A DNA stretch of 64,000 bases, taken from contig OZ241907.1 of assembly GCA_965203515.1 (NCBI GenBank), forward strand, positions 1,714,578-1,778,577. Direction: 5' to 3'. This document shows, in pieces, positions 14,075 through 37,656 of the stretch. This DNA is from Spirochaetia bacterium. Its GTDB lineage: Bacteria > Spirochaetota > Spirochaetia > SZUA-6 > Bin103. Numbering within the stretch: the first letter of the stretch is position 1; each line of letters opens with the position of its first letter. A program made the translations under genes and the position numbers. The notes below the pieces were generated by a model. It did not search any database, was not told where the DNA came from, and was given only the letters and a program-made list of their open reading frames with translations.

Positions 14075-15730
14075 CTACGATGAGTCCACCTTTCGCGAAA
14101 GATCGGAAGTGAGGCACTCCACCAGGGAGATGGCTGACAGTACGACGGCGGCCGCGAAACCGACGGTGACCTGATCGCCCGATAGGTGCTGACCGTAGTT
14201 ACCGACCGAATGCAGATGGTTCACTATGAGGCTGGTAGTTCTGGTGACATACGTGCTCTGGCGTTGGGCGCGCTCAGAGCCGGTTATGAGCCGCAGTATC
14301 CGGCACTCCCGGCCTGGGGAGTCGTGAGGAATCTTGCCTCGTTCGTCCGGCAGCCTCTCGATTCCTGCGTGCTTCCATTCGTCGAGCCATGCATCGGGTA
14401 GACGGCGGTCAGGTGGGAGCTCGGCGGTCCAGATCAGATGCAGCGCCCGATTGGCAATGCTCCTGATCCAGACGAGTGCACTCTCTGGAGCCGGGACGAG
14501 GTCGCGGATCGCCAAGCGCACGTAGTCGCAAAGGTCACTGTCCACGGATCCCTGCGACACTTGGTCGAGGCGCAGCTCAAGCAGCATCTGAACATGCGTC
14601 TCGAATTTGGCGGCCGTGCCCAGAAGACGGGTCAGGTCGGCAATGGCGGGTGCCTGATCCTGAGCGTAGCGCTGCATCAGGCGACAGGAACTGCGCAGTC
14701 GGTTCCTCGACTGTTGGCCGAACCCTCGCTCCTCCAGTGCTTGCCGCCGCGGCTGAGACAGCTCGGCCAGCGGTATTTCGTCGGCAGTCAGCGCGCCGAG
14801 ATCAGCACGCAATTCGCTGTCGCAATCATCCCACAATGCGTCGAGGAGCTGGCGCGGCCCGTCCAGCACCGCTTCCGCAGCATGATCTATTTCCGATTTG
14901 GAAAGACGTTGTCCGCGGTGTCCGGCCCACAGCCTCTGCAGGAGCGCGCAAACGAGCAAAGGCACCCTTCCTGTCCAGTTGGCTATCTCCTTCCGCACCG
15001 ACTCGTCCAACTCGCAGCCGGCGTCACGGAGCGGCTGCAGGAACGCTTCCAGATCACGGTCGTCGAGCGCGGCCACGCGCACCGGCGTATCGTAGAATAT
15101 CCCCCAGAAGTCCGAGGTCCGCGACTCCTCCGTCTTGCACAGCTCGCGCAACGGCCGCCGGCTGCCGGTGACCAGTCGCAGACTGGTCCTCTGCGCCAGC
15201 GCGCGCAGTTGGTCCCACAGGTTCCGCGTCAACCCGGTACCGGCAAGCGCATAGTCGAAGCCATCGAGCACCGCGAGCAGGCGCACGCCGTCCTTTTCGA
15301 GTTGGTCGAATATGATGCCCAGCACCTCATGCCTGGAAACTTCTTCGAAGTCGTCGAAATACCCCACAAGGTCTGGACAGACCCCCTGCAACGCCGCCTT
15401 GATCTCGTCCGCAAACCGCCGCATGAATTCGTGGTCCGAGGCCGGTACCCCGCGGCGGAGATCGACGTACGCAGCGGTGACATACTGCTCGACCCCGTCC
15501 CGGTAGGTGGCGGCGGCATGGTGCAGCAGGACGGACTTTCCGTAGTGCGCCGGCCCCACGACCGACACGTGATCCGGCGACGGTTTCCGCAGGTGCTTGT
15601 CGATGCGGCTCATGAGCGCTGCGCGGCCCAGCATGGGGGGGACCGAAGGTCCCAGGACTTGGTACGGGTCAGGGTCAGGCATGGCGTATGGCCTCCTGGC
15701 GGGCGCGCTCCACGAGGTCGTCGAAGTCAA
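14075..15730 (-). CDS. STAND-like P-loop NTPase (Arch_ATPase/AAA_16-like) with C-terminal helical domain
   Basis: VSVVGPAHYGKSVLL Walker A, RLLAVLDGFD Walker B, LVTGSRRPL sensor-like. Resembles the ATPase module at the C-terminus of the upstream giant gene. 4-nt gap to the downstream SAM-MTase. Confidence 0.55.
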   Translation of the reverse strand: MTSTTSWSAPARRPYAMPDPDPYQVLGPSVPPMLGRAALMSRIDKHLRKPSPDHVSVVGPAHYGKSVLLHHAAATYRDGVEQYVTAAYVDLRRGVPASDHEFMRRFADEIKAALQGVCPDLVGYFDDFEEVSRHEVLGIIFDQLEKDGVRLLAVLDGFDYALAGTGLTRNLWDQLRALAQRTSLRLVTGSRRPLRELCKTEESRTSDFWGIFYDTPVRVAALDDRDLEAFLQPLRDAGCELDESVRKEIANWTGRVPLLVCALLQRLWAGHRGQRLSKSEIDHAAEAVLDGPRQLLDALWDDCDSELRADLGALTADEIPLAELSQPRRQALEERGFGQQSRNRLRSSCRLMQRYAQDQAPAIADLTRLLGTAAKFETHVQMLLELRLDQVSQGSVDSDLCDYVRLAIRDLVPAPESALVWIRSIANRALHLIWTAELPPDRRLPDAWLDEWKHAGIERLPDERGKIPHDSPGRECRILRLITGSERAQRQSTYVTRTTSLIVNHLHSVGNYGQHLSGDQVTVGFAAAVVLSAISLVECLTSDLSRKVDSS

Positions 15731-18700
15731 CGTTCATCCGCAGCCAGTCGGCCATCAACGGGATGGCCAGTCGGTACGTGACCCCGCGGTTGGATTGGTC
15801 GATCTCGAGCAGCTCCAGTTCACGGAGCTCGGTAATGTCGTCAGCGAGAGCTTCGTCATCCCGGACCGGTACACGATATTCCTCGAATTTCAGGCCGATG
15901 AGATCGCGGTTGAAGGCGTCCGGGGCGTCCGCCATACGGTCGCTGAGCGCCAGTATCAGTCTGCGCCGTTCGCTGCCGGCGTAGCCCCACAGGGTCTGGA
16001 AGTGCTCGTTGTCCCGCACCATCTCGGTTGCGGCCCGGTCCACGAGGTCACCCGTGATGATTCGTTCGCTCCCCGCGGCGGCCTGGTCGAACACCCGGCT
16101 GCAGAGCGACTGGATGAGAAACGGATGGCGCGAGCACAGTGCTACCAGCTGGTCACGCGCCTGTGGCAGGTAGCGGATTCGACGCGCGACCGGTTCGGTG
16201 ACCAGCCGCCGGGCTTCCTCCTCCGGCAGCGCACTGACCCCGATCCGGTGGCCGAACCCGAACAGCGCCGACCAGTACTCTTCGCGCAGCCGCTTCAGCC
16301 TGCGGGAGCCGGTGAGGATCGCGCCCAGACCGGATTGGTGCTGCAACAGGTGACGAATGTTCTCGGGGACCTGCTGACTGGTAATACCGCCGTCGATACC
16401 ATCCTGGAGCTTGTCGAACTCGTCGAGCATGAGCAGGACCCGGCGCCGGCGCGGCTTGGCGGCCTCGATCGCCGTCGACAGGTACAACGCCAACGTCTCG
16501 TAGGGGTGATCGTCGGAGAACGCGCCGCGCAATGCGGCGAGGAAGGCCAACTTGAACGGTCGCCCCGACTCCGGGGCCGGCGCATCAGGAATCCAGGTTT
16601 CGATGCCGGCGTCGGCAAGGGCAATACCCGTCTGCCTCGCCAACAGCCTGAACACGTTGGACGTGGACATGCTGTCCATATCCTGGAACGAGCAGTAGAC
16701 GGGAACCCATCCGGGAAGCGCTTCCTCTTTCCGCAACTGCTGCAGGATCGACGTCTTGCCGGTACGCCGATTCCCTTCCAGCAGGATCACGTTGGCCTGC
16801 TCACCGCCGAGATGGCGCCTGATCTGATCCATGATGCCGTCGCGGCCGAAGAACATTTCGGCCCGGTCCACCGGAGGCCCGACGATGTAGGGACTGGCGT
16901 CGAGGTCGCCGGTAGCGGCGGCCTCATTGCCGGAGCGGACCGGCACGGAGACCTTCGTCCGGCCCTCTACGGGCGTGGCGTCGAGGCGGCGCGCCTGCCA
17001 CGCCACGTCGATATCCAGCGGCTGCGTATCGTCTTGCGCCCGGACGACAAGCGGAATCTCATGCCGCTGACCTTCGGCCAAGTAGGGCACTTCTCTCACT
17101 AACGTACGATCGGCCTGACTCACTAACGTGAGATCGGCCTGCCGCACGGTCACCCGCACCTTGCTCAGCGGCACCGGCGACAGGTTGGCAACCCGAAGCC
17201 GCACCTCAGCGACGGTGCCGGCCAGCACTTCCGCGGGTACGGTGATGTCGAGCCTGCCTCTGCGCTGCATGGCGTGGGCCTCATCCTCGACGAGACCCAC
17301 CAGCCCCCAAGTAACAGAACGCAGGCGCTCACCGAGCGGATCTTCGGCCCGGTCGAGGACGCCAAGCGCCTCGCGCAACTTCGCCACAGCGAATTCGAGA
17401 ACCACCAGGCGGCCTGCGCCTTCAGGAACCGAATCGAGATAGTCCAAGGAGGCAGCCGCCCTCCTCGCCGCCTCCAGCCATCTGTCGATCGCACCATCGC
17501 CGGCCGTCGGTGCGGCTGGGGGAGTATCGAGCGATCGTATCTCCGCCGCGAGCTTTGCAAGCATATCTATGCCGCGCGCGCCGTCAGAACGGCGCCCTGC
17601 CGCCAGACTCGCCGCAAGAGGTCCTTCCAGCCAGAGGGCGACCGGATGCCGCGCCATCCCGGAGAGCAGGCGGAAGAGCACGGCCAGCGCGTCTCCGCGC
17701 AGCTCGCCAAGTTCCTTGAGCACGGCATCCTGCACCGAGACAGGCGGCACCGGAACTTTCAACGCGCGGAGCACGGGAATCGACAGATGACGAATCGTCG
17801 ATCCGGTGGCGTGACCCGACAACCAGAACCAATACGCGGGTGAGCGCAACAGGGCGGCCAGGAATCGCGGCTTGACGATCCCTTCGTGCACGCGAACGAA
17901 CGCGATGGTCTCGTCGGCCATCACCTCATACTCGTGCTCGTGCTCGTTTTCCTCAACCAGAAAGATGCTGCCTACGTTGTCCGTCATCGGGACGAGCAGG
18001 TCGCCGCCACGAAGATATGCCCGTGGGTCAGGGTTACCCAACAACGAGCTGAAATCGAAGGGCCAGGTCTGCGGCCGGCGAATACGCACATCCGTCACGT
18101 CGGCGGAGCGGAGCAGATTCGGCTCGGGTGCGTCAAAAAAATCGTTTTCCACCCCAGGAAACACCTCTGCGACCTCGTCCAGACTTTTCACCTTCAGAGA
18201 AGGGTCTGCCTTGACGAGCCGCTCGATCTCGGCGTCCAGCCGCTCGCTTCCCGACTTCTTGGCGATCAACTCGTAGTCGCGGAGCGTGAGTTCGCGCACG
18301 GGGGCGGACCATGACTCGACACCCGGCGAAGCGTAACTCGCAGACGCCTGGCGGTGATCCCCGATCATCTCGGCGACGCCCCGCGCATCTTCCTGGGCCG
18401 CCTGCCATGCCATCGGTGAGACGGTCAGAAACCGTACGGCGTCACGCGGTTCATCGCGGGAAAACACGATAACGCTCATGGATATACCGGTGAACGGCTC
18501 GAACGAGCCGGCCGGAAGCGCGATCACATCCTGCACGCGGTATTCCGAAAGAAGCGCCTTCCTCAGAGGCAAGGAATCGGCATGGAACAGCGGCCGCTCC
18601 GGTAACGCGACTACGGCTCGTCCGCCGGGCCGCATGTTGGCCATCACGTGCTGCAGGAACAGCTCTTCGACGCGATAGCTGGGAAACCGGAAGCTATCGT

Positions 18701-19553
18701 CTTCGTCGTATAACTCGTCTTCGTCGCTCCACGGCGGGGAGGCGACGACGCAGTCGAAGACCGCCTCCGATCCGTCACTCGGCACTGCCTTTTTCAGCGC
18801 GTTACCGTACTCCAGCCCCGGGGGTTCGACCCCGGCCAACAACAGTCGGCACAGTGTGATAAGGTACGCGCGTTCCGCGACTTCGACGCCGGAAACCGCA
18901 GCCGGTCCGACATTCGATCGCGGTGATGACGGAAGCGCCGCGTTCAGCCGGCGCGATGCCCCAGCGAGCAGTTCCCCAAAGCCGAAGCACGGATCATAGA
19001 CGCTTTCACCGGGTTTGAGGTCGGCCAGATCCAGCATGAGATCGGCGACCGGCGCAGGCGTGATGAACTGGCCCAGGCGATCCGCGTGCCGTTTCACCAT
19101 GAACCGCAACGCGTCGTCGAATACACCCGTCGCACGCCGGCGCCCTTCCGACGTGCTCAAATCGAGAGCGAACAACCAGTCGATTACCCGACGCATCTCG
19201 GCGCCGGTAGAAGTTCTCAATATCACATTCGTCGCTAAATCGGAAAATCCATAAAAATCTTCGTCGATAAGATATCGATCTTGCATCCGAAACAGCCCGG
19301 CATCGACACGCTTCGCCGCCAGTATGGCATCCGACTTTGGGGGCCTCTTCCATCTCTTTTTCTCGACCAATTCATCTATATCATCGCCTGAATCGATCTG
19401 GCCTTCGGTATCGTCCGAACCGGCGTATCCGATGAACAGTCCGGCCAGCCCCCACACTGCGCTCACAGGATGCTTCCACTCTTCGATCAGCGTCCGCAGG
19501 TCGGAACGCACCTGTTCCAAGGCTGCTTGTTCGTGCTTCCCGTCATGGTTCAT
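15675..19553 (-). CDS. 1292-aa fusion protein: HsdM-like N6-adenine MTase + HsdS-like TRD + uncharacterised middle + C-terminal STAND/Arch_ATPase-like NTPase
   Basis: GQFITPAPVADLM (motif X), YDPCFGFGELL (motif I), FDCVVASPPW (motif IV variant). HLSIPVLRALKVPVPPVSVQDAVLKEL is an S-subunit TRD signature. C-terminal PYIVGPPVDRAEMFFGRDGI...VILLEGNRRTGKTSIL (Walker A), RRVLLMLDEFDKL (Walker B), ILTGSRRL. Overlaps the downstream NTPase gene by 56 nt. Confidence 0.6.
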   Translation of the reverse strand: MNHDGKHEQAALEQVRSDLRTLIEEWKHPVSAVWGLAGLFIGYAGSDDTEGQIDSGDDIDELVEKKRWKRPPKSDAILAAKRVDAGLFRMQDRYLIDEDFYGFSDLATNVILRTSTGAEMRRVIDWLFALDLSTSEGRRRATGVFDDALRFMVKRHADRLGQFITPAPVADLMLDLADLKPGESVYDPCFGFGELLAGASRRLNAALPSSPRSNVGPAAVSGVEVAERAYLITLCRLLLAGVEPPGLEYGNALKKAVPSDGSEAVFDCVVASPPWSDEDELYDEDDSFRFPSYRVEELFLQHVMANMRPGGRAVVALPERPLFHADSLPLRKALLSEYRVQDVIALPAGSFEPFTGISMSVIVFSRDEPRDAVRFLTVSPMAWQAAQEDARGVAEMIGDHRQASASYASPGVESWSAPVRELTLRDYELIAKKSGSERLDAEIERLVKADPSLKVKSLDEVAEVFPGVENDFFDAPEPNLLRSADVTDVRIRRPQTWPFDFSSLLGNPDPRAYLRGGDLLVPMTDNVGSIFLVEENEHEHEYEVMADETIAFVRVHEGIVKPRFLAALLRSPAYWFWLSGHATGSTIRHLSIPVLRALKVPVPPVSVQDAVLKELGELRGDALAVLFRLLSGMARHPVALWLEGPLAASLAAGRRSDGARGIDMLAKLAAEIRSLDTPPAAPTAGDGAIDRWLEAARRAAASLDYLDSVPEGAGRLVVLEFAVAKLREALGVLDRAEDPLGERLRSVTWGLVGLVEDEAHAMQRRGRLDITVPAEVLAGTVAEVRLRVANLSPVPLSKVRVTVRQADLTLVSQADRTLVREVPYLAEGQRHEIPLVVRAQDDTQPLDIDVAWQARRLDATPVEGRTKVSVPVRSGNEAAATGDLDASPYIVGPPVDRAEMFFGRDGIMDQIRRHLGGEQANVILLEGNRRTGKTSILQQLRKEEALPGWVPVYCSFQDMDSMSTSNVFRLLARQTGIALADAGIETWIPDAPAPESGRPFKLAFLAALRGAFSDDHPYETLALYLSTAIEAAKPRRRRVLLMLDEFDKLQDGIDGGITSQQVPENIRHLLQHQSGLGAILTGSRRLKRLREEYWSALFGFGHRIGVSALPEEEARRLVTEPVARRIRYLPQARDQLVALCSRHPFLIQSLCSRVFDQAAAGSERIITGDLVDRAATEMVRDNEHFQTLWGYAGSERRRLILALSDRMADAPDAFNRDLIGLKFEEYRVPVRDDEALADDITELRELELLEIDQSNRGVTYRLAIPLMADWLRMNVDFDDLVERARQEAIRHA

Positions 19554-19567
19554 GGCTATACCGTACG

Positions 19568-19583
19568 TAGCAGAAACCGTGCC
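19568..19583 (-). promoter_or_regulatory. sigma-54 (-24/-12) promoter TGGCACGGTTTCTGCT
   Basis: Minus-strand sequence matches TGGCACG-N4-TTGCW with GG and GC at canonical spacing. It lies 15 nt upstream of the giant ORF start (19553) and 2 nt downstream of the RtcR-like stop (19585-19587). Confidence 0.5.
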
Positions 19584-19584
19584 A

Positions 19585-21081
<1,497 letters not shown>

Positions 21082-28256: not shown

Positions 28257-29018
28257 ATGCTGCTCGGACAGCCGCTGCCGGCGGTGGCGGCGGCGGCGGC
28301 GATCGTGGCCGCCGCGTCGGCTCTGCAGGCCACCATCGGCTTCGGTCTGGCGCTGCTGGCCATCCCCTTGCTGCACCTGAGCGGCTTCGCGCCGCCGGAG
28401 GCGATCGCCGTCTCCAGCTCGGCCATGCTGGTGCAGATGGCCAACGGGGTAGTGCGGCTGCGCGCCTGGGTACGGCCGCAGGAGCTGCTGTGGCCGCTGG
28501 CGGTCGTCATGGCGGCGCTGGCGGCCGGCGTGCTGGCGCTGCGCGCGGTGGTCGCCGTCCGGCCCGATCTGGCCCGGCAGGCCGCCGGCGCCGTGGTGCT
28601 GATCGCGCTGCTGGCGCTGGCGCTCCGCCGGCCGCCGCCGCGGCAGCGGGTGGCGGCGCCGTGGACGGTGCTGGCGATGGGCGCCTCCGGGCTGCTGGCC
28701 GGCTCGACCGGCATGGGCGGCGTGCCGCTGGCGCTCTGGACCTACGCGCACCGGTGGCCGCCGGAGCGCATCCGCGCCACGATCTGGGCTATCGCGCTGC
28801 CGGCCACCGCCATGCTGCTGGCGCTGCTGGCGGTCACCTTTGGCGCCGGCGTGGTCCGCGCGCTGGCGCTGGCGGCGCTGTTGTCTCCGTGCGCGCTGGC
28901 CGGATCGAACGCCGGACTCGCCCTGGCGCGGCGCCTGTCGGTGGCGCGTCTGCGGGCGGCCGCCTTCGCGGCGCTGGCCGTACTCGGCGTGAGCGCGGTC
29001 ATCCGCCCGCTGCTGTAA
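28257..29018 (+). CDS. TauE/SafE-type membrane transporter (sulfite exporter family)
   Basis: ~250-aa polytopic membrane protein, Gly/Ala-rich TM helices. Internal ATG 28257 chosen over track start 28143. Confidence 0.55.
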   Translation: MLLGQPLPAVAAAAAIVAAASALQATIGFGLALLAIPLLHLSGFAPPEAIAVSSSAMLVQMANGVVRLRAWVRPQELLWPLAVVMAALAAGVLALRAVVAVRPDLARQAAGAVVLIALLALALRRPPPRQRVAAPWTVLAMGASGLLAGSTGMGGVPLALWTYAHRWPPERIRATIWAIALPATAMLLALLAVTFGAGVVRALALAALLSPCALAGSNAGLALARRLSVARLRAAAFAALAVLGVSAVIRPLL

Positions 29019-29055
29019 GGTATCGCCGGAGATACGCAGCGTATCGCCGGAGATA
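29019..29055 (+). promoter_or_regulatory. tandem direct repeat (G/C)GTATCGCCGGAGATA x2, each a near-palindrome TATC-N6-GATA; candidate enhancer-binding-protein UAS
   Basis: Repeats at 29019-29034 and 29040-29055, about 75-90 bp upstream of the sigma-54 promoter at 29108. Confidence 0.4.
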
Positions 29056-29107
29056 GGGCGGTGCGCCCCGCAGCCCGCGCGCGGACTCGTCAGGCGCCCG
29101 GAATCGG

Positions 29108-29122
29108 TGGCACGGATTGTGC
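29108..29122 (+). promoter_or_regulatory. sigma-54 promoter TGGCACGGATTGTGC
   Basis: Perfect -24 TGGCAC and -12 TGC at canonical spacing. Followed by RBS AGGAGG (29134-29139) and ATG 29149. Confidence 0.55.
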
Positions 29123-29148
29123 CTGAAACATCGACAGGAGGATTCCAC

Positions 29149-30024
29149 ATGCACAAATCACTGATCGCGACCGTACTCGGCGTCATGATCGTCGCCGGCG
29201 CCGCCGCCAACGACGACGACGACAACGACGAGGTGTCGACCGTCGATGTCCTGGCGGTGCTCGAAGAGATCAACCAGAAGCTCGATCACGACCGGTCGTT
29301 CGACTCTGACGGAGCGCCGGACTCCGGCTTCGGCGGCGGCCCGTGGATGCCGGTGCGCTACCTGCCCGCCATCGCCGACCTCAACGCCTACTTCAAGAAG
29401 CTCGGTTCGTACGCTCCCATGAACCCGTTCTTCTTCCCGTTCAAGGACGGCGGCGCCGGCACCTGGCGATGGAGCCTCGACCGCAGCCTGCAGATCGGCA
29501 TGGAGTACGGGGGGTTCGGCCAGGACGTCCTGGGCTTCGCCACGCATGCGAGCGATCCTCTGGGACCGCGCGACACCGTCGATGCGGACGGCGACGGCTA
29601 CGACGACTACCACAGCTACGCCGGATACGGGCAGCACTACTTCGCCGGCATCTTCCAGTACAAGGTGCCGATAGCGCCCCGGCTGCTCTATTTGGCGACC
29701 GGTATCAAGACCGGCCTGGCGTTCGAGTCGCTGCGGTACGGCATGGACCGCCGCCAAGTGCTCACCGACACGCTCGGCATCACGTCCGGCGGCAACTCCT
29801 GGAAGCGGACCAGCCTGCTGGGCGGCGTGTACGCCGGGCTGCAGATCCGCCTGGACGGCGATCTCAACGTATTCAAGCTGGGGATCGAGGCCGGCGTGAC
29901 CGGACACTACGCCATAAGCGCCTGGGCGCCGGCCACCGGCGTCCACAAACGCACGCCCGCTCCCCCCGACGCCATGCAGGCGCACAACTTCTGGGTGGCG
30001 ATCGGCCCTCAGTTTCACTACTGA
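29149..30024 (+). CDS. secreted hypothetical protein (signal peptide MHKSLIATVLGVMIVAGAAAND, Asp-rich region)
   Basis: Strong RBS AGGAGG 10 nt upstream of ATG 29149. Hydrophobic N-terminal signal sequence. Confidence 0.5.
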   Translation: MHKSLIATVLGVMIVAGAAANDDDDNDEVSTVDVLAVLEEINQKLDHDRSFDSDGAPDSGFGGGPWMPVRYLPAIADLNAYFKKLGSYAPMNPFFFPFKDGGAGTWRWSLDRSLQIGMEYGGFGQDVLGFATHASDPLGPRDTVDADGDGYDDYHSYAGYGQHYFAGIFQYKVPIAPRLLYLATGIKTGLAFESLRYGMDRRQVLTDTLGITSGGNSWKRTSLLGGVYAGLQIRLDGDLNVFKLGIEAGVTGHYAISAWAPATGVHKRTPAPPDAMQAHNFWVAIGPQFHY

Positions 30025-30040
30025 GTCCGCCGTCTGAGGG

Positions 30041-30553
30041 ATGGACCTGGGATCGCTGCTCGACGGGCTGCTCCGGTCCACGGCGGTCGCGCTGGGCCTG
30101 ATCGGCGTGGTCGAGATCGGCCTGGACCGGCCGGAGGTCCAAACCGACCGTTCCGGGGCGATCACCATCACCGTGCATCTGCACGGCCACGTGACCGATC
30201 AGGTCCGCGATCTGATTCAGAGCTCGGCGCGGGTGGCGATCGATTTCGAGCTCCGGTACTTTCCTCGCACGGGCCGGAAGCTCCGGCTGGTCAGCCGCAA
30301 TCTGATCCGGTTCCACAGCCTGACCGGCCGCTACGAAGTGCGCCGCGGCGATGAGACGGCATCGGTCGCTTCCCTGGAGGAGGCGGCGGAGCTGCTCGGC
30401 TCGGCAACGGTGAAGATCGGGCCGGTCGGCCCGGGGCTCGCGGTCATCAAGGCGCGCGCCTCGCTCCCCGACGTTCACGCCGGAGACATGCCCGGCGCAC
30501 TGTGGTCCGGGGCCGTGCCGAGCACGTCGGCGTTGATCCCCGCGGACCCATGA
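30041..30553 (+). CDS. DUF4390-like protein (commonly precedes sensor kinase/NtrC pairs)
   Basis: Gene position and ~170-aa size. Stop overlaps the HK start (ATGA). Confidence 0.45.
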   Translation: MDLGSLLDGLLRSTAVALGLIGVVEIGLDRPEVQTDRSGAITITVHLHGHVTDQVRDLIQSSARVAIDFELRYFPRTGRKLRLVSRNLIRFHSLTGRYEVRRGDETASVASLEEAAELLGSATVKIGPVGPGLAVIKARASLPDVHAGDMPGALWSGAVPSTSALIPADP

Positions 30554-31698
30554 GAGGCTATGCGGTTGCGCTGATCGCCCTTACCCTGGCCGCGGTCGCC
30601 GCCGTCACCCTGGCGGCGATCGGATCGATCGGGCGGCTCTCCGACCCGGCCGACGCGGTGCGGGCCGCCGCTCACCTGCAGGAGGCGCGCGGCGCGGTGC
30701 GCAACGCCTACGCCGCCGAATCGGCGCCGGCCGCGCGGGCGCTGCTCGAGGAGGCGGCGCAGCAGCTCGACACGGCCGGCGGGCTGCTCGCCGGAGCCGA
30801 GGTCGTGCAGGCTGCGGTCAGCCGCACCGTCCTGGTGACCGTCTTCGCCGCGGCGCTGCTGGGGCTCCTTGCCGGCGCGCTCCTGTGGTTCGGTTCGTTC
30901 CGGTGGGTGATCGCACCCCTGTCCGGTCTGGCCGACCGCATGCAGCGACTGACCGACGCGCCCGCGCCGGTCGAGGTGACGGCTCGCGGGCCTCGGGAGA
31001 TACGCGCGCTGCAGCGCGCCTTCAACCGCCTGGTCACCGCGCTGCGCGACTACCGGGAACGGATCACGGCGATGGAACGCGCCCACATAGGCCGCTTCCT
31101 CACGCACCAGTTCCGTAACTCCCTCACCCCGATCCGCCTGGCCGCCGACGAACTGGCGCGGGCGCCGGCCGCCGATACCCGGTCGATCGCCGACCTGCTG
31201 AGCGGGGAGGCGGCCCGGATGGAGGAGATACTGCAACGGTTCGGCACGCTCTACCGTTTTCCCGAGCCGGAACCGGCCGATCTCGACATCGCCCTGTTGG
31301 CGCGGCGCGTGGCGGCCGGCTATCCCGGTATCCGGGTGGAGGTACCCGGGCATACGGTGCTGGTGCATGCCGATCGCACCCTGATAGAGCAGGCGCTGAC
31401 CAACCTCATCCGCAACGCCATCGACGCCACGGAAGGGGGCGATTACGGTTCCGTCACCGTCCGGGTAACCGACCGGCCGGCGGTGATCGGCGTCCGCGAC
31501 CGCGGTGCCGGGATGACGCCGGAACAGCGGAATCGCGCCTTCGACGACTACTTCACCACCAAGGAGAACGGCATGGGCGTGGGCCTCAGCTTCGTGCGGA
31601 AGGTAGCCGCCGCGCACCGTATCCGGCTGACGATGCGGTCCCGCCCCGGCCAGGGCACGACCGTCGAGCTGGCATTCCCGGCAACCGGCCGCCCATGA
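30550..31698 (+). CDS. sensor histidine kinase (two TM helices, H-box THQFRNSLTPI, HATPase_c)
   Basis: LTNLIRNAIDA N-box, VRDRGAGMT G1, GMGVGLSFV G2. Confidence 0.75.
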   Translation: MRGYAVALIALTLAAVAAVTLAAIGSIGRLSDPADAVRAAAHLQEARGAVRNAYAAESAPAARALLEEAAQQLDTAGGLLAGAEVVQAAVSRTVLVTVFAAALLGLLAGALLWFGSFRWVIAPLSGLADRMQRLTDAPAPVEVTARGPREIRALQRAFNRLVTALRDYRERITAMERAHIGRFLTHQFRNSLTPIRLAADELARAPAADTRSIADLLSGEAARMEEILQRFGTLYRFPEPEPADLDIALLARRVAAGYPGIRVEVPGHTVLVHADRTLIEQALTNLIRNAIDATEGGDYGSVTVRVTDRPAVIGVRDRGAGMTPEQRNRAFDDYFTTKENGMGVGLSFVRKVAAAHRIRLTMRSRPGQGTTVELAFPATGRP

Positions 31699-31708
31699 AG
31701 ACCCGCCC

Positions 31709-33061
31709 ATGAAGACCACCGTGCTGATCGTCGACGACGATGAGAACGTCGGCCGCAGCGTCTCCATGACGCTGGCCCGGCGCGGGATGGAGCCGCGTTG
31801 CGCGTCGCCGTCCGAATGGCCTGCGGCGCTGACCGAAGCCGTCGACGTGGTGCTGCTCGACCTGTACCTGGGCGGCGTCAAGGGCCGCGACGTCCTGGAG
31901 CGTCTGCTGGCGGAGCATCCGCTGGTGCCGGTCATCATCATGTCCGGTCTCGCTTCGGCCGAGGAGGCGGTCGACTGCGTGCGGCGCGGCGCCTTCGACT
32001 ACCTGGAGAAACCGCTCACCGCCGAACGGCTGGCGATCACCGTGCGCAACGCCGCCCGCTTCCGGCAGGTGCGGCTGTCGGTCCTGGCCGACACCATGCC
32101 GGTCTTCGCGTCGCAGAGCATGCGCGCGCTGGCCGAAGACGCGCGCAAGGTGGCGGCCACCGACGCCGCCGTGCTGATCACCGGCGAGAGCGGAACCGGC
32201 AAGGAGGTGACCGCGCGCTACATCCACGGCCTGTCGCGCCGCAGCGGGCAGCCGCTGATCAAGGTCGATTGCGGCGCGTTGCCCGAGAGCCTGATCGAGA
32301 GCGAGCTGTTCGGGCACGCGAAGGGGGCCTTTACCGGCGCGAACGCGGACTATGCCGGCAAGCTGCCGGCGGCCGCCGGCGGCACCCTGTTTCTGGACGA
32401 GGTAGCGGAGTTGCCGCCCACCGCGCAGACACGACTGCTGCGCTTCCTGGACTCGGGCGAGGTGCAGCGCGTCGGCTCGACTGCGGTCACCACGGTCGAC
32501 GCACGGGTCATCGCCGCCACCAACGTCGACCTCGAACAGGCCGTCGCCGACGGCGCGCTGCGCCGTGACCTCTACTACCGCCTCAACGTCATTCGGCTGC
32601 GGATCCCGCCGCTGCGGTCACGGCGCGAGGACATCGCCCCGCTCGCCGACAGCTTCGTGACCTCGTTGGCCGTGCGGCTGGGCGTGCAGCCGCCGGTCCT
32701 GAGCCCGGACGCGTACCGGCGGCTGCGCGCGCTGTCGCTCCCCGGCAACGTGCGCGAGCTCAAGACGATCATCGAGCGGGTGCTGGTGCTGGTCGGCGCG
32801 CCGGTGATCGACGCGGCGCACGTCGAGCGAGCGGCGGCCGGCGGCATGGTCGATGCCGACGACCCCTTCGCCCGCACCATGCCGCTTGCGGAGGCGAAGC
32901 GGCAGCTCGAACGCCGGTACCTGCAGCGCCAGCTCGATCTGCATGGGCGTTCGGTCAAGCGCACGGCAGCGGCGCTCGGTATACTGCCGAACAATCTGAG
33001 TCGCCGCGTGCGCCAGCTCGAATCGCGGGATACGGAAGAGATCGAAGACGGCGAGCCGTGA
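31709..33061 (+). CDS. sigma-54-dependent response regulator (NtrC family: REC + AAA+ + Fis HTH)
   Basis: LIVDDDENV, VLLDLYL, ITGESGTGKE, GAFTGA, LFLDEVAEL. Confidence 0.8.
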   Translation: MKTTVLIVDDDENVGRSVSMTLARRGMEPRCASPSEWPAALTEAVDVVLLDLYLGGVKGRDVLERLLAEHPLVPVIIMSGLASAEEAVDCVRRGAFDYLEKPLTAERLAITVRNAARFRQVRLSVLADTMPVFASQSMRALAEDARKVAATDAAVLITGESGTGKEVTARYIHGLSRRSGQPLIKVDCGALPESLIESELFGHAKGAFTGANADYAGKLPAAAGGTLFLDEVAELPPTAQTRLLRFLDSGEVQRVGSTAVTTVDARVIAATNVDLEQAVADGALRRDLYYRLNVIRLRIPPLRSRREDIAPLADSFVTSLAVRLGVQPPVLSPDAYRRLRALSLPGNVRELKTIIERVLVLVGAPVIDAAHVERAAAGGMVDADDPFARTMPLAEAKRQLERRYLQRQLDLHGRSVKRTAAALGILPNNLSRRVRQLESRDTEEIEDGEP

Positions 33062-34839: not shown

Positions 34840-34875
34840 AGACACTTGTCTTCGACAGCAAAGGTGTCTTATACT
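34840..34875 (+). promoter_or_regulatory. MerR-type promoter/operator: -35 TTGTCT (34846-51), 18-bp spacer, -10 TATACT (34870-75), flanked by inverted repeat AGACAC/GTGTCT
   Basis: Read directly. The -10 ends 7 nt before MerR ATG 34883 (near-leaderless). Confidence 0.35.
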
Positions 34876-34882
34876 GCATGCG

Positions 34883-35314
34883 ATGTCGAATGACGGCGAC
34901 CGTCTGGCGATAGACGAACTGTGCGCCCTGGTGGATCTGCCCAGGCGTACCGTCCGCTACTACATCCAGGAAGGACTCGTCGACCGGCCCGCCGGGGCCA
35001 AGCGTGGCGCCTACTACACCAGGCGCCACGTGGAACAATTGATGACGATCCGCACCTGGCAGCGGGCCGGCCTGAGCCTGGAACGTATCCGCGAGCTGGT
35101 GGCCGGCGGCGGTAAGAGCTCCGCTCCCCTGCCGCCGCCGCGCCCCCGGCGCCCCGGAGACGTGACGTTGCGTACCCACGTCACGATCCGCCCCGGCGTC
35201 GAGCTGGTGATCGATCCGCATGAATCGGGTCTGAGCGCCGAGGAGGTGCGTGCGGTCGTCCGTCGAACGGCATCGCTCATCGACGAAACGCGCAAGGAGG
35301 ATGCAGAGAGATGA
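34883..35314 (+). CDS. MerR family transcriptional regulator
   Basis: N-terminal HTH LAIDELCALVDLPRRTVRYYIQEGLV. Stop overlaps the next start (ATGA 35311-35314). Confidence 0.7.
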   Translation: MSNDGDRLAIDELCALVDLPRRTVRYYIQEGLVDRPAGAKRGAYYTRRHVEQLMTIRTWQRAGLSLERIRELVAGGGKSSAPLPPPRPRRPGDVTLRTHVTIRPGVELVIDPHESGLSAEEVRAVVRRTASLIDETRKEDAER

Positions 35315-37656
35315 GAACGACGACGATCCTGGTCGCAACGATGGAGACCGCTCACGGCGACGTGGTGTTGGAGGAGGTCGGCATCGACGCCGCGATCGAC
35401 GACCTCATGGCGGCCGTCAGCGTGTGTCAGCGGTACCGCAACCCCGGCACGACCCACGTGGAGGCGGTCTACACCTTCCCGCTGCCGCTGGATGCCGTCC
35501 TGTTGCAGTTCGAGCTGGAGCTGGGCGATCGGCGGATGGCCGGCACGGTCATAGCCAAGCCGGACGCCGAAGAGCGGTATGAGAACGCCATCGCCGAAGG
35601 CGACGCGGCGGTGCGCCTGGAGCAGTCGCAGCCGGGGCTCTACACCGCGAACGTCGGCAACCTGGCTCCGGGCGAGACGGCGACCGTCCGCTTCCGGTAC
35701 GGGCTTCTGCTGCGCTGGAACGGCGACACCGTCCGGCTCATGCTGCCGACGACCATCGCCCCGCGGTACGGCGATCCGGCCGCCGGCGGCCTTGCCCCGC
35801 ATCAGGCGCCGGAGTACGCGTTCGACGCCGAACGCTCCTTTCGGCTGCAGGCCGCGGTGCGGGGCGCGCTGCAGGGGGCGCGCTGGGCATCGCCGTCGCA
35901 CGACATCGCGGTCACGCCTGACACCTGGCAGACGGTGATCGAGATCGCCCGGCCTGCGGCGATGGACCGCGACGTGGTGCTGGAGGCGCGCGCCGCGGCG
36001 GCGGTCGATACCGGCGATAGCAGGGCGTTGCTCGCCCGCGACGGAGGAGGCTGGGTCGTCCTGGCGAGCTTCCGGCCCGAGCTGACCGACCTGACCGAAC
36101 CCGCAGCGCACCGCAACCTCAAGATCGTCGTCGACTGCTCCGGATCGATGAGCGGCGACTCGATCGCCCAGGTGCGGATCGCCGGAGAGCGGATACTCGA
36201 AAGCCTGCGGCCCGGCGACCTGTTCGACATCGTCGCGTTCGGCAGCCGCCATCGCGCGCTGTTCGGCCGCGAGACGCCGGCGTCCGCGGCCAACGTCGCC
36301 CGCGCGCGCCGCTTCGTGAGCGGCCTGGACGCCGACATGGGCGGCACGGAGATACAGGCCGCGCTGCGGGCCGCCTACCGCATCGCCGGAGAACCCGGCA
36401 TGACGCGCGACCTGCTGCTGATCACCGACGGCGAAGTGTGGCAGACCAGGAGCGCCGTCGATGAGGCGCGCCGGTCCGGCCACCGCATCTTTACGGTCGG
36501 CGTCGGCAGCTCGGTCGCCGAGCCGTTCGTCCGCGCGCTCGCCAAAGCGACCGGCGGCGCCTGCGAGCTGGTAGCGCCGCGGGAAGACATGGCCGAACGC
36601 ATCCACCGCCACTTCCAGCGCATCCTCGCGCCGCCCGCGCGTACGGCTCGCGTCGTCTGGCCGGCCCCCGTACGGCAGACGGTCCCCGATCCGCTGCCGC
36701 CGCCGTACCCCGGCGACACCATGCACCTGTTCGGATCGTTCGCCGAGCGGCCGTGCGGACCGGTCACCCTGGAGCTGGAGTTGGCCGACGGCCGCACGAT
36801 CACCCAACGGATGGAGGTCGGCCCGGAGCCGACCGATGACACCGTGGACGGGCCGAGCGCCGTTCGGTCCGACGTGGCGCGCATGGGCGCCGCGCAGCGG
36901 TTGCCGGCGATGGCCGACGGGGCGGCGGCGACCGAGCTGGCGGTCCGGTATCAACTCCTGTCGGAGTGGACGGACTACCTGGTCGTTCACGTGCGGGCGG
37001 AGGCCGACAAGGCGAACGATCTGCCGGCCCTGGTCAAGGTCCCGCAGGTGCTGGCCGCCGGCTGGCACGGAGTCGGCACCGTGCTGCACGATCGCGCCGC
37101 GCCGCGCCCGATGGCCGCGCCACAGCCGATGGATCAGGACGTCGGCGAACCGCTCTGTGAGTACAGAGCAAGACCTTCTGCGGGCCGTTCTGACAAATCC
37201 CGAAGAGGCACGCGGAAACCAGCGTCTGGGGCGCGAGCGAGCCACCGCCGGTCGGATCTCACCTATGCAGAACGCCGGCTTCCAGATGAGGCCTTCTCCC
37301 CAGAGCCCCTTCCAGCGCCGCACGCGATCACCCCTGTCGAACTCGTCGCCGCGCTGAACGAGCGCCCGCTGCCGGCCGCGCCGACGCTCGACGATCTGCT
37401 GGCGCGCGGCGTTCCCGACGAGATCGTCGACCAGCTCCGGGAACTGGCCGACGGAGGCGGTGAGGACCCGTCCGCTATCGCCATCATCTTCCTGTACCTG
37501 CTGTGCCGGTCATCCGCCGGCAAGGCGCTGGACGCGCAGCAACGCCGGTCGATACTGGCCGCCTACCGGAAGCTGTCGGACCGCGAGGCGACGGTCCGCG
37601 CCGTCCGGCGCGTCTGGCGGGAGTGGGAGGCATCCGGCGCCCACGCGCTCCCGTAA
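35311..37656 (+). CDS. VIT domain + von Willebrand factor A (vWA) domain protein with long C-terminal extension
   Basis: vWA MIDAS motif KIVVDCSGSMSGDSI...TDG; VIT-like N-terminal region. Confidence 0.65.
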   Translation: MRTTTILVATMETAHGDVVLEEVGIDAAIDDLMAAVSVCQRYRNPGTTHVEAVYTFPLPLDAVLLQFELELGDRRMAGTVIAKPDAEERYENAIAEGDAAVRLEQSQPGLYTANVGNLAPGETATVRFRYGLLLRWNGDTVRLMLPTTIAPRYGDPAAGGLAPHQAPEYAFDAERSFRLQAAVRGALQGARWASPSHDIAVTPDTWQTVIEIARPAAMDRDVVLEARAAAAVDTGDSRALLARDGGGWVVLASFRPELTDLTEPAAHRNLKIVVDCSGSMSGDSIAQVRIAGERILESLRPGDLFDIVAFGSRHRALFGRETPASAANVARARRFVSGLDADMGGTEIQAALRAAYRIAGEPGMTRDLLLITDGEVWQTRSAVDEARRSGHRIFTVGVGSSVAEPFVRALAKATGGACELVAPREDMAERIHRHFQRILAPPARTARVVWPAPVRQTVPDPLPPPYPGDTMHLFGSFAERPCGPVTLELELADGRTITQRMEVGPEPTDDTVDGPSAVRSDVARMGAAQRLPAMADGAAATELAVRYQLLSEWTDYLVVHVRAEADKANDLPALVKVPQVLAAGWHGVGTVLHDRAAPRPMAAPQPMDQDVGEPLCEYRARPSAGRSDKSRRGTRKPASGARASHRRSDLTYAERRLPDEAFSPEPLPAPHAITPVELVAALNERPLPAAPTLDDLLARGVPDEIVDQLRELADGGGEDPSAIAIIFLYLLCRSSAGKALDAQQRRSILAAYRKLSDREATVRAVRRVWREWEASGAHALP

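Follow-up and report, generated by a model that had tools for sequence, protein, structure and literature searches.

A stretch of 64,000 nucleotides from a Spirochaetia bacterium (hereafter, the window; 68% GC) contains four consecutive genes on the plus strand, which encode a predicted outer membrane protein (gene 1), a DUF4390-like protein (gene 2), a histidine kinase, and an NtrC-family response regulator. Comparison with related loci indicates that a conserved sigma-54 promoter with two putative activator sites probably drives gene 1 together with the genes for its own sensor and activator. The following elements were located between gene 1 and the TauE/SafE-family gene that precedes it:

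29020 to 29034, no strand assigned: putative upstream activator site 1, GTATCGCCGGAGATA, a GTATC-GCCGGA-GATAC dyad with the core TATC-N6-GATA, centered at about −107 relative to the predicted start of transcription.
29041 to 29055, no strand assigned: putative upstream activator site 2, GTATCGCCGGAGATA again and identical to site 1, centered at about −86.
29108 to 29122, plus strand: sigma-54 (−24/−12) promoter element, TGGCACGGATTGTGC, with a transcript start predicted near 29134.
29137 to 29142, plus strand: ribosome-binding site AGGAGG, 6 nt upstream of the ATG at 29149; its GGAGG is kept in orthologues.

The dyads, TGGCACGGATTGTGC, AGGAGG, and the ATG at 29149 all lie where a preliminary description of this DNA had placed them, and its two direct copies of a TATC-N6-GATA dyad spaced 21 bp apart were likewise recovered. 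The offset of 21 bp, measured start to start, corresponds to two helical turns. The exact 15-mer GTATCGCCGGAGATA occurs in the whole window only at these two positions, and so does the more general TATC-N6-GATA (0.14 occurrences expected in 64 kb; two or more in 1 of 100 shuffles). The 4-bp arms TATC and GATA are perfect in both copies, the first being extended to GTATC...GATAC while the second ends in GATAG, and the spacer GCCGGA is nonpalindromic. Enhancers of sigma-54 promoters typically comprise at least two dyad-symmetric sites, about 80 to 150 bp upstream of the start and in helical phase. With two dyads in phase at about −107 and −86, the window fits this geometry, and the dyads of relatives lie at the same distance or approximately one turn further upstream. 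The promoter element TGGCACGGATTGTGC differs from TGGCAC-N5-TTGC by one mismatch, at −15 (GTGC for TTGC), with canonical spacing of the GG and GC dinucleotides. The start near 29134 was derived from the usual distance of 11 to 12 nt after the −12 GC. The intergenic gap measures 130 bp, and the promoter scan found no sigma-70-like promoter in it.

Strong support comes from related loci. A genome scan with gene 1 yielded 15 Spirochaetia loci of 6.5 to 13 kb each, and one additional relative, L099, was found by another route (see below). All relatives found in genomes are labeled as spirochaetes, mostly as metagenome-assembled genomes named "Spirochaetia bacterium," of 4.6 to 7.8 Mb. A −24/−12 element was present upstream of gene 1 in 12 of the 15 loci and in L099; in ten loci it lies 34 to 65 nt before the ATG, and in L009, L015, and L099 it likewise precedes gene 1. 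In the same 12 loci, TATC-N6-GATA occurs only upstream of gene 1 and its −24/−12 element. The two dyads are spaced 21 bp apart in most of these loci, 33 bp apart in L014, and 23 bp apart in L015, while in three loci no second dyad passed the filter used. An alignment of eight orthologous upstream regions, whose gene 1 proteins are 70 to 80% identical, has 40 invariant columns. Most of these fall into TATC, GATA, (N)ATC, GATA, TGGCA, GG, GC, and the ribosome-binding site and start codon, and the stretches between the conserved elements are much more variable. In four of the aligned regions, site 1 is centered at about −107, and in the remaining four at about −117 to −120, a difference of approximately one helical turn, as expected for sites that depend on the face of the helix. 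Both elements are kept at the same position in orthologues that span 34 to 80% protein identity and 42 to 68% GC. The upstream neighbors vary among the loci, which ties the dyads to gene 1 rather than to the preceding gene: a TauE homologue lies 1.5 to 3.2 kb further upstream in L001 to L004 and L009 and was not detected in L006, L010, L012 to L014, and L099, and in all of these the dyads remain with gene 1. Phylogenetic footprinting thus supports the core of the preliminary description, namely, a sigma-54 promoter with a tandem dyad enhancer and a co-directional NtrC-type activator as its probable binder.

The two dyads are identical, including their spacers, in the window strain only; in relatives, site 2 reads (G/A)ATC-N6-GATA at the 21-bp offset and has a different spacer. 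Four contigs from other samples carry the same gap sequence as the window, except for one base after the −12 element. This pattern suggests that site 1 was recently copied or converted onto site 2 in the window strain, thereby creating a long hairpin not seen elsewhere.

The occurrence of the dyads follows that of the two-component genes in most loci. Kinase and activator genes adjoin gene 1 in ten loci, and every one of these also has dyads and promoter. L005, L007, and L011 possess neither nearby two-component genes nor the dyad and promoter elements, apart from a remnant of site 1 in L005. L005 is the most telling case for a link between dyads and activator. It has the same junction between the TauE gene and gene 1, with site 2 and the promoter deleted and a decayed site 1, GTATCATCGCAGACA, directly after the TauE stop codon. 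The three signaling genes are gone as well, and gene 1, located 41 nt behind the TauE gene, abuts the SulP gene.

Two distant organisms of low GC content contribute independent support. L099 (42% GC) was reached through a relative of gene 2 with 30% identity. It carries two dyads 22 bp apart, the promoter element TGGCACAGTTCCTGC, and a homologue of gene 1, followed by a hairpin, the gene 2 relative, the kinase gene, and a convergent activator gene. L093 (43% GC) was reached solely by a DNA pattern search. Its genes for a bona fide DUF4390 protein (31.7 bits), a kinase of matching architecture, and an activator precede a dyad pair and a sigma-54 promoter, which here stand in front of a lipoprotein gene instead of gene 1. 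The dyads recur in both organisms with the same DUF4390-kinase-activator module. Furthermore, the recognition-helix region of the activator reads LPNNLSRR in the window and its orthologues and LPNNLARR in L014, and L093 has a similar RSNLSRR. Co-occurrence, partial co-loss, and recurrence in L093 and L099 associate the dyads with the cognate activator, their probable binder.

The four genes of the cluster and their predicted products are as follows:

29149 to 30024, plus strand: gene 1, encoding an exported protein of 291 amino acids (aa), predicted to be a small outer membrane beta-barrel.
30041 to 30553, plus strand: gene 2, 170 aa, combining a hydrophobic helix at the N terminus with a beta-sandwich; a divergent DUF4390 (PlrP-like) candidate kinase accessory.
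30550 to 31698, plus strand: histidine kinase, 382 aa, consisting of a transmembrane helix, a periplasmic segment of about 75 aa, a second transmembrane helix, and the Pfam domains HAMP, HisKA, and HATPase.
31709 to 33061, plus strand: NtrC-family response regulator and sigma-54 activator, 450 aa, with REC, AAA+ with GAFTGA, and a Fis-type helix-turn-helix (HTH; ...LPNNLSRRVRQL...); the proposed binder of the dyads.

The genes are tightly packed, with a gap of 17 nt, an overlap of 4 nt (ATGA), and a gap of 10 nt, and a SulP/STAS transporter gene follows 85 nt further on. The scan revealed no terminator-like site separating gene 1 from gene 2 and neither terminator- nor sigma-70-like sites between the cluster genes in general. 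Contigs of the same strain for which genes had been called independently have the same kinase start (382 aa, 4-nt overlap), which confirms ATG 30550, overlapping the gene 2 stop codon, as the true one. Seven relatives (L001 to L004, L006, L009, and L010) have about 1.7 kb between genes 1 and 2. In L001 (6869 to 8576), this insert consists of genes for an ATP-binding cassette (ABC) ATPase (313 aa) and an ABC-2 permease (253 aa); it is absent from the window (30024 to 30041), L012, and L014.

The product of gene 1 had been described as a secreted Asp-rich protein. A signal peptide and an acidic stretch were indeed found, but from its structure model and fold matches the protein is predicted to be a small outer membrane beta-barrel. 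It also has the conserved motif DxDxDGDGYDDY and ends in ...GPQFHY, of which ...FHY is conserved in homologues, as is the signal peptide. No Pfam or NCBIfam family matched. A large protein collection contained homologues in 22 clusters in all; an exact-protein look-up returned nothing for the window protein and was successful for the 292-aa record P0001. Some homologues, 448 to 461 aa in length (P0008, P0011, and P0012; L005, 5376 to 6798), contain an extra domain of about 160 residues after the signal peptide. The AlphaFold model (pLDDT, 71.5) shows long antiparallel strands, and its best matches among Protein Data Bank folds are the barrels of the OmpA transmembrane domain, OmpW, Ail, and NspA, all of them weak (E of at least 4e-3; target-normalized TM-score of at most 0.66).

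The assignment of gene 2 to DUF4390 is supported by transitive evidence through relatives. By itself, the window protein scores 16.8 bits against DUF4390 (PF14334), under the Pfam gathering cutoff of 27, which qualifies the label given to it previously. The domain was matched, however, by 13 of 18 gene 2 orthologues (best E, 1.7e-4) and by 11 of 19 distant relatives (best E, 1.4e-6), and a profile of the gene 2 family matched the DUF4390 protein of L093, which passes the cutoff, with an E of 1.2e-6. Direct comparison of close gene 2 orthologues with the L093 protein by hhalign gave an E of 0.069. The structure model of gene 2 consists of an N-terminal helix plus a beta-sandwich. A divergent DUF4390 protein therefore seems the best reading of gene 2, as backed by its relatives.

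In the kinase, HAMP, HisKA, and HATPase were found, while PAS and a periplasmic PDC were not detected by Pfam; the protein is thus not of the NtrY/PlrS type. The activator matched Response_reg (62.8 bits) and Sigma54_activat (222.6 bits; E, 3e-66) and contains GAFTGA; its nearest solved relatives are NtrC1, NtrC4, LuxO, and NtrX. It remained under every NCBIfam equivalog cutoff, including those of AtoC (336.8 versus 714 bits), NtrC (323.7 versus 558.6), NtrX (312.2 versus 600), GlrR (302.5 versus 763), and ZraR (285.5 versus 760). Given the equivalog scores and the lack of detectable PAS and PDC domains in the kinase, the system likely works like NtrYX, NtrBC, AtoSC, and ZraSR without being a member of any of them.

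In the mechanism that we favor, RNA polymerase carrying sigma-54 would bind TGGCAC-N5-GTGC (29108 to 29122) as a closed complex. The phosphorylated regulator (31709 to 33061) would bind as dimers to the two TATC-N6-GATA dyads on the same helix face, form an ATPase ring, reach the polymerase through DNA looping, and open the promoter. Transcription would then begin near 29134. The transcript would comprise the predicted beta-barrel gene and, in the window lineage, continue without a gap through the DUF4390-like gene, the HAMP kinase gene, and the activator gene. As the activator genes would be on the same transcript, activation would raise the level of the signaling proteins, amounting to positive autoregulation of the glnA-ntrB-ntrC kind. 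By analogy with PlrP, the DUF4390-like protein is probably a modulator that acts on the kinase from the periplasm. Across relatives, gene 1 is the predicted conserved target.

The pattern search that had led to L093 targeted metagenomes and required two TATC-N6-GATA-type dyads 21 bp apart, 45 to 75 nt, and TGGCAY-N7-GC, in this order. It matched 79 contigs (L016 to L094) of 40 to 65% GC, mostly from soil and rhizosphere. No homologue of gene 1 was found in these 79 loci by tblastn or profile search, and the scan therefore reveals a widespread module geometry and not the regulon of the window activator. In 18 of the 79 contigs, an activator of about 610 to 636 aa with the HTH ...HPN[YN]LHRL... 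is encoded divergently, close to the dyads. Recurrent targets in the pattern loci were exported proteins of about 151 to 158 aa, membrane proteins of about 1090 aa, and Cys-rich peptides of about 67 aa, and in a further group, long conserved leaders lack an early start codon. Rfam searches of the window and of seven metagenome loci yielded no match to a known RNA family. In L047 and L063, tandem dyads of the same geometry and a sigma-54 promoter are flanked on one side by a divergently oriented RtcR homologue and on the other by the gene for an RtcB RNA ligase. RtcR-type activators may thus also use TATC/GATA dyads.

Several observations weigh against the favored interpretation and were considered together with alternative explanations. 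The −24/−12 element, which had been called a strong RpoN site, contains a mismatch and by itself is not significant, as one-mismatch matches are about as frequent in the window as chance predicts (6 found versus 3.7 expected). The match is credible because it lies 41 nt upstream of the ATG in an intergenic gap and is conserved in orthologues. A chance resemblance without any functional promoter or enhancer, which the frequency of such matches would allow, can practically be dismissed: the dyad pair, with two adjacent copies where 0.14 are expected per 64 kb, is far from chance, and promoter and dyads are conserved in position across the divergent orthologues described above. Furthermore, rpoN was absent from the 64-kb window, as judged by a search for an RpoN-box match; its existence in the genome is implied by the two GAFTGA activators encoded there. 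The Fis-type HTH of the operon activator matched HTH_8 with 18.3 bits, under the Pfam cutoff of 22. Finally, dyads and promoter are retained in L008 even though no two-component gene lies within 6 kb.

Contrary to the preliminary description, the operon's own regulator is not the only activator nearby. A second GAFTGA activator is encoded on the minus strand at 19585 to 21081, 8 kb upstream, and is of the RtcR type with a CARF-AAA-HTH architecture (PADLOC RtcR_PspF2; E, 1.7e-197). Promoter and dyads could accordingly be real, with the dyads bound by this RtcR/CARF-type activator or by a repressor that is no activator at all. In soil metagenomes, sigma-54 promoters preceded by tandem TATC-N6-GATA dyads are also found next to unrelated activators, among them those of the RtcR-rtcB loci L047 and L063, so that this type of dyad is not exclusive to one activator family. 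However, the second activator has its own −24/−12 site with no TATC-N6-GATA anywhere near, and it is distinguished from the operon activator by its HTH region, SYQTLTNWLSK. Moreover, the two-component activator is the sole activator in the DNA fetched with the dyads in L012, L014, L093, and L099, and in L005, site 2 and the promoter were lost along with the two-component genes. Binding by another regulator is thus rather unlikely, and the second activator is a weak rival as the binder of the gene 1 dyads. Less probable still is that the tandem near-palindromes function as RNA and not as protein-binding DNA, by forming a hairpin that would serve the upstream TauE-family gene as a terminator or stabilizer. 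The TauE stop codon ends at 29018 and the repeat begins only 2 nt later, and in the window strain the two units pair into a long hairpin (−18.3 kcal/mol; z-score of −3.9 for the 41-nt core and −2.3 in its 66-nt context). Nevertheless, the repeat is not followed by a T-run and was not among the sites reported by the terminator scan. In relatives, only the local site 1 stem forms and the inter-unit hairpin is absent (z-scores of 0.9 to −2.4). Conservation is limited to the TATC/GATA arms, with varying spacers and a fixed 21-bp phasing, and the dyads stay with gene 1 where the TauE homologue is distant or undetected. The hairpin reading was rejected because the structure is not conserved among relatives.

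The most serious alternative concerns the extent of the control. The sigma-54 promoter and enhancer might govern gene 1 only, with the kinase and activator genes transcribed mainly from an internal or read-through constitutive promoter and no meaningful autoregulation. This is compatible with the rest of the favored model. A basal supply of activator is required in any case, and the plrP-plrS-plrR genes of Bordetella are arranged like an operon and yet have internal promoters (PMC13001219). Autoregulation is also not conserved: a hairpin followed by T's lies in the 154-nt gap between genes 1 and 2 of L099, in which the activator gene is moreover convergent, and gene 1 is monocistronic in L008. 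In contrast, no terminator- or sigma-70-like site interrupts the closely packed cluster of the window, and relatives maintain tight packing even with two ABC-transporter genes inserted. We therefore regard separate expression of the signaling genes as improbable, though clearly less so than the other alternatives. Positive autoregulation, which had been proposed for this cluster, follows from gene packing in the window lineage but does not extend to L099 and L008. Since gene 1 is transcribed apart from the signaling genes in these two loci, the conserved function would be the control of gene 1, with autoregulation resulting from local gene order.

Two further features of the window are of note. 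The −24/−12 site of the second activator (19584 to 19570; TGGCACGGTTTCTGC) is located directly after its stop codon and precedes an open reading frame of 1292 aa (15675-21081 region, minus strand), which encodes a fusion of Type I-like N6-methyltransferase, specificity-subunit-like, and AAA-STAND-like ATPase parts. This may be a defense or modification gene controlled by a CARF signal and dependent on sigma-54. The sole sigma-70-like promoter match between 28 and 35 kb, TTGTCT-18-TATACT (34846 to 34875), lies ahead of a MerR-family gene (34883 to 35314), which overlaps the start of a gene for a VIT/VWA-domain protein (35311 to 37656).

A close parallel among well-established systems is NtrB/NtrC at glnAp2. 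Both have a −24/−12 promoter with two dyad sites on one helix face, located about 100 to 140 bp upstream in the enteric case. As in glnA-ntrB-ntrC (glnALG), a regulator with REC, AAA+ (GAFTGA), and a Fis-type HTH is encoded with the kinase behind the target gene, an arrangement that provides for positive autoregulation. However, NtrC binds TGCACC-N5-GGTGCA and not TATC-N6-GATA, NtrB is cytoplasmic whereas the window kinase is membrane bound with a HAMP domain, and the enteric target is glutamine synthetase, compared to a predicted outer membrane protein here. The window regulator is also no NtrC orthologue, as reflected by its score under the NCBIfam ntrC cutoff. Likewise, ZraP-ZraS-ZraR of Escherichia coli has a sigma-54 activator that acts on inverted repeats and targets the gene for an envelope protein together with its own genes. 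There, zraP is oriented divergently from zraSR and encodes a periplasmic chaperone, whereas the genes of the window are co-directional, the target is a predicted beta-barrel, and the regulator falls well below the ZraR cutoff. The Rrp2-RpoN-RpoS pathway of Borrelia is another case of a spirochaete NtrC-family sigma-54 activator governing surface-related functions. Rrp2 is reportedly active without a defined upstream enhancer; in contrast, the window has a clear conserved tandem dyad and an activator with a C-terminal HTH. No activator-binding motif like TATC-N6-GATA turned up in literature searches in which the motif itself was not a query.

A further likeness is to PlrP-PlrS-PlrR and NtrYX. 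According to genetic evidence in a 2026 paper (PMC13001219), the DUF4390 protein PlrP is a third component located in the periplasm, where it modulates PlrS, a kinase of the NtrY type. The plrP and plrS genes of Bordetella overlap by 4 bp, and DUF4390 has been reported from beta-, gamma-, and zeta-proteobacteria and Magnetococcia (PMC13001219). The window cluster has the same 4-bp overlap between a DUF4390-type gene and the kinase gene directly downstream, with an NtrC-family regulator gene next, and export or membrane anchoring is predicted for the accessory protein. The differences are that the window protein is under the DUF4390 threshold, that PAS and PDC were not detected in the kinase, and that the regulator reaches 312 bits against an NtrX cutoff of 600. 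In addition, the window belongs to the Spirochaetota, and its cluster has a sigma-54 promoter with an enhancer and a defined first gene.

Overall, the regulatory logic of this locus, with the target first, kinase and regulator behind, and a tandem enhancer upstream, is textbook knowledge, and the switch is of an ordinary kind. Its value lies in annotation and in providing an experimental starting point, without a new principle. Novelty lies in the motif, in the conserved target, and in the occurrence of a DUF4390-type module with sigma-54 output in the Spirochaetota. A conserved motif, a promoter, and a single conserved target are thereby supplied for an uncharacterized two-component/sigma-54 system of uncultured high-GC spirochaetes, and the recently proposed idea of DUF4390 as a third component is extended beyond the Proteobacteria. 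More tentatively, and with considerable doubt, DUF4390, kinase, and activator may form an ancient three-component envelope sensor common to Proteobacteria (PlrPSR/NtrYX) and Spirochaetota. Its spirochaete form would be characterized by full sigma-54 dependence, a tandem TATC-N6-GATA code, and one conserved direct target, an outer membrane barrel with a calcium motif. If so, the uncharacterized DUF4390 domain would gain a simple and testable output, and the dyad code would be common to many unrelated sigma-54 regulons of soil bacteria.

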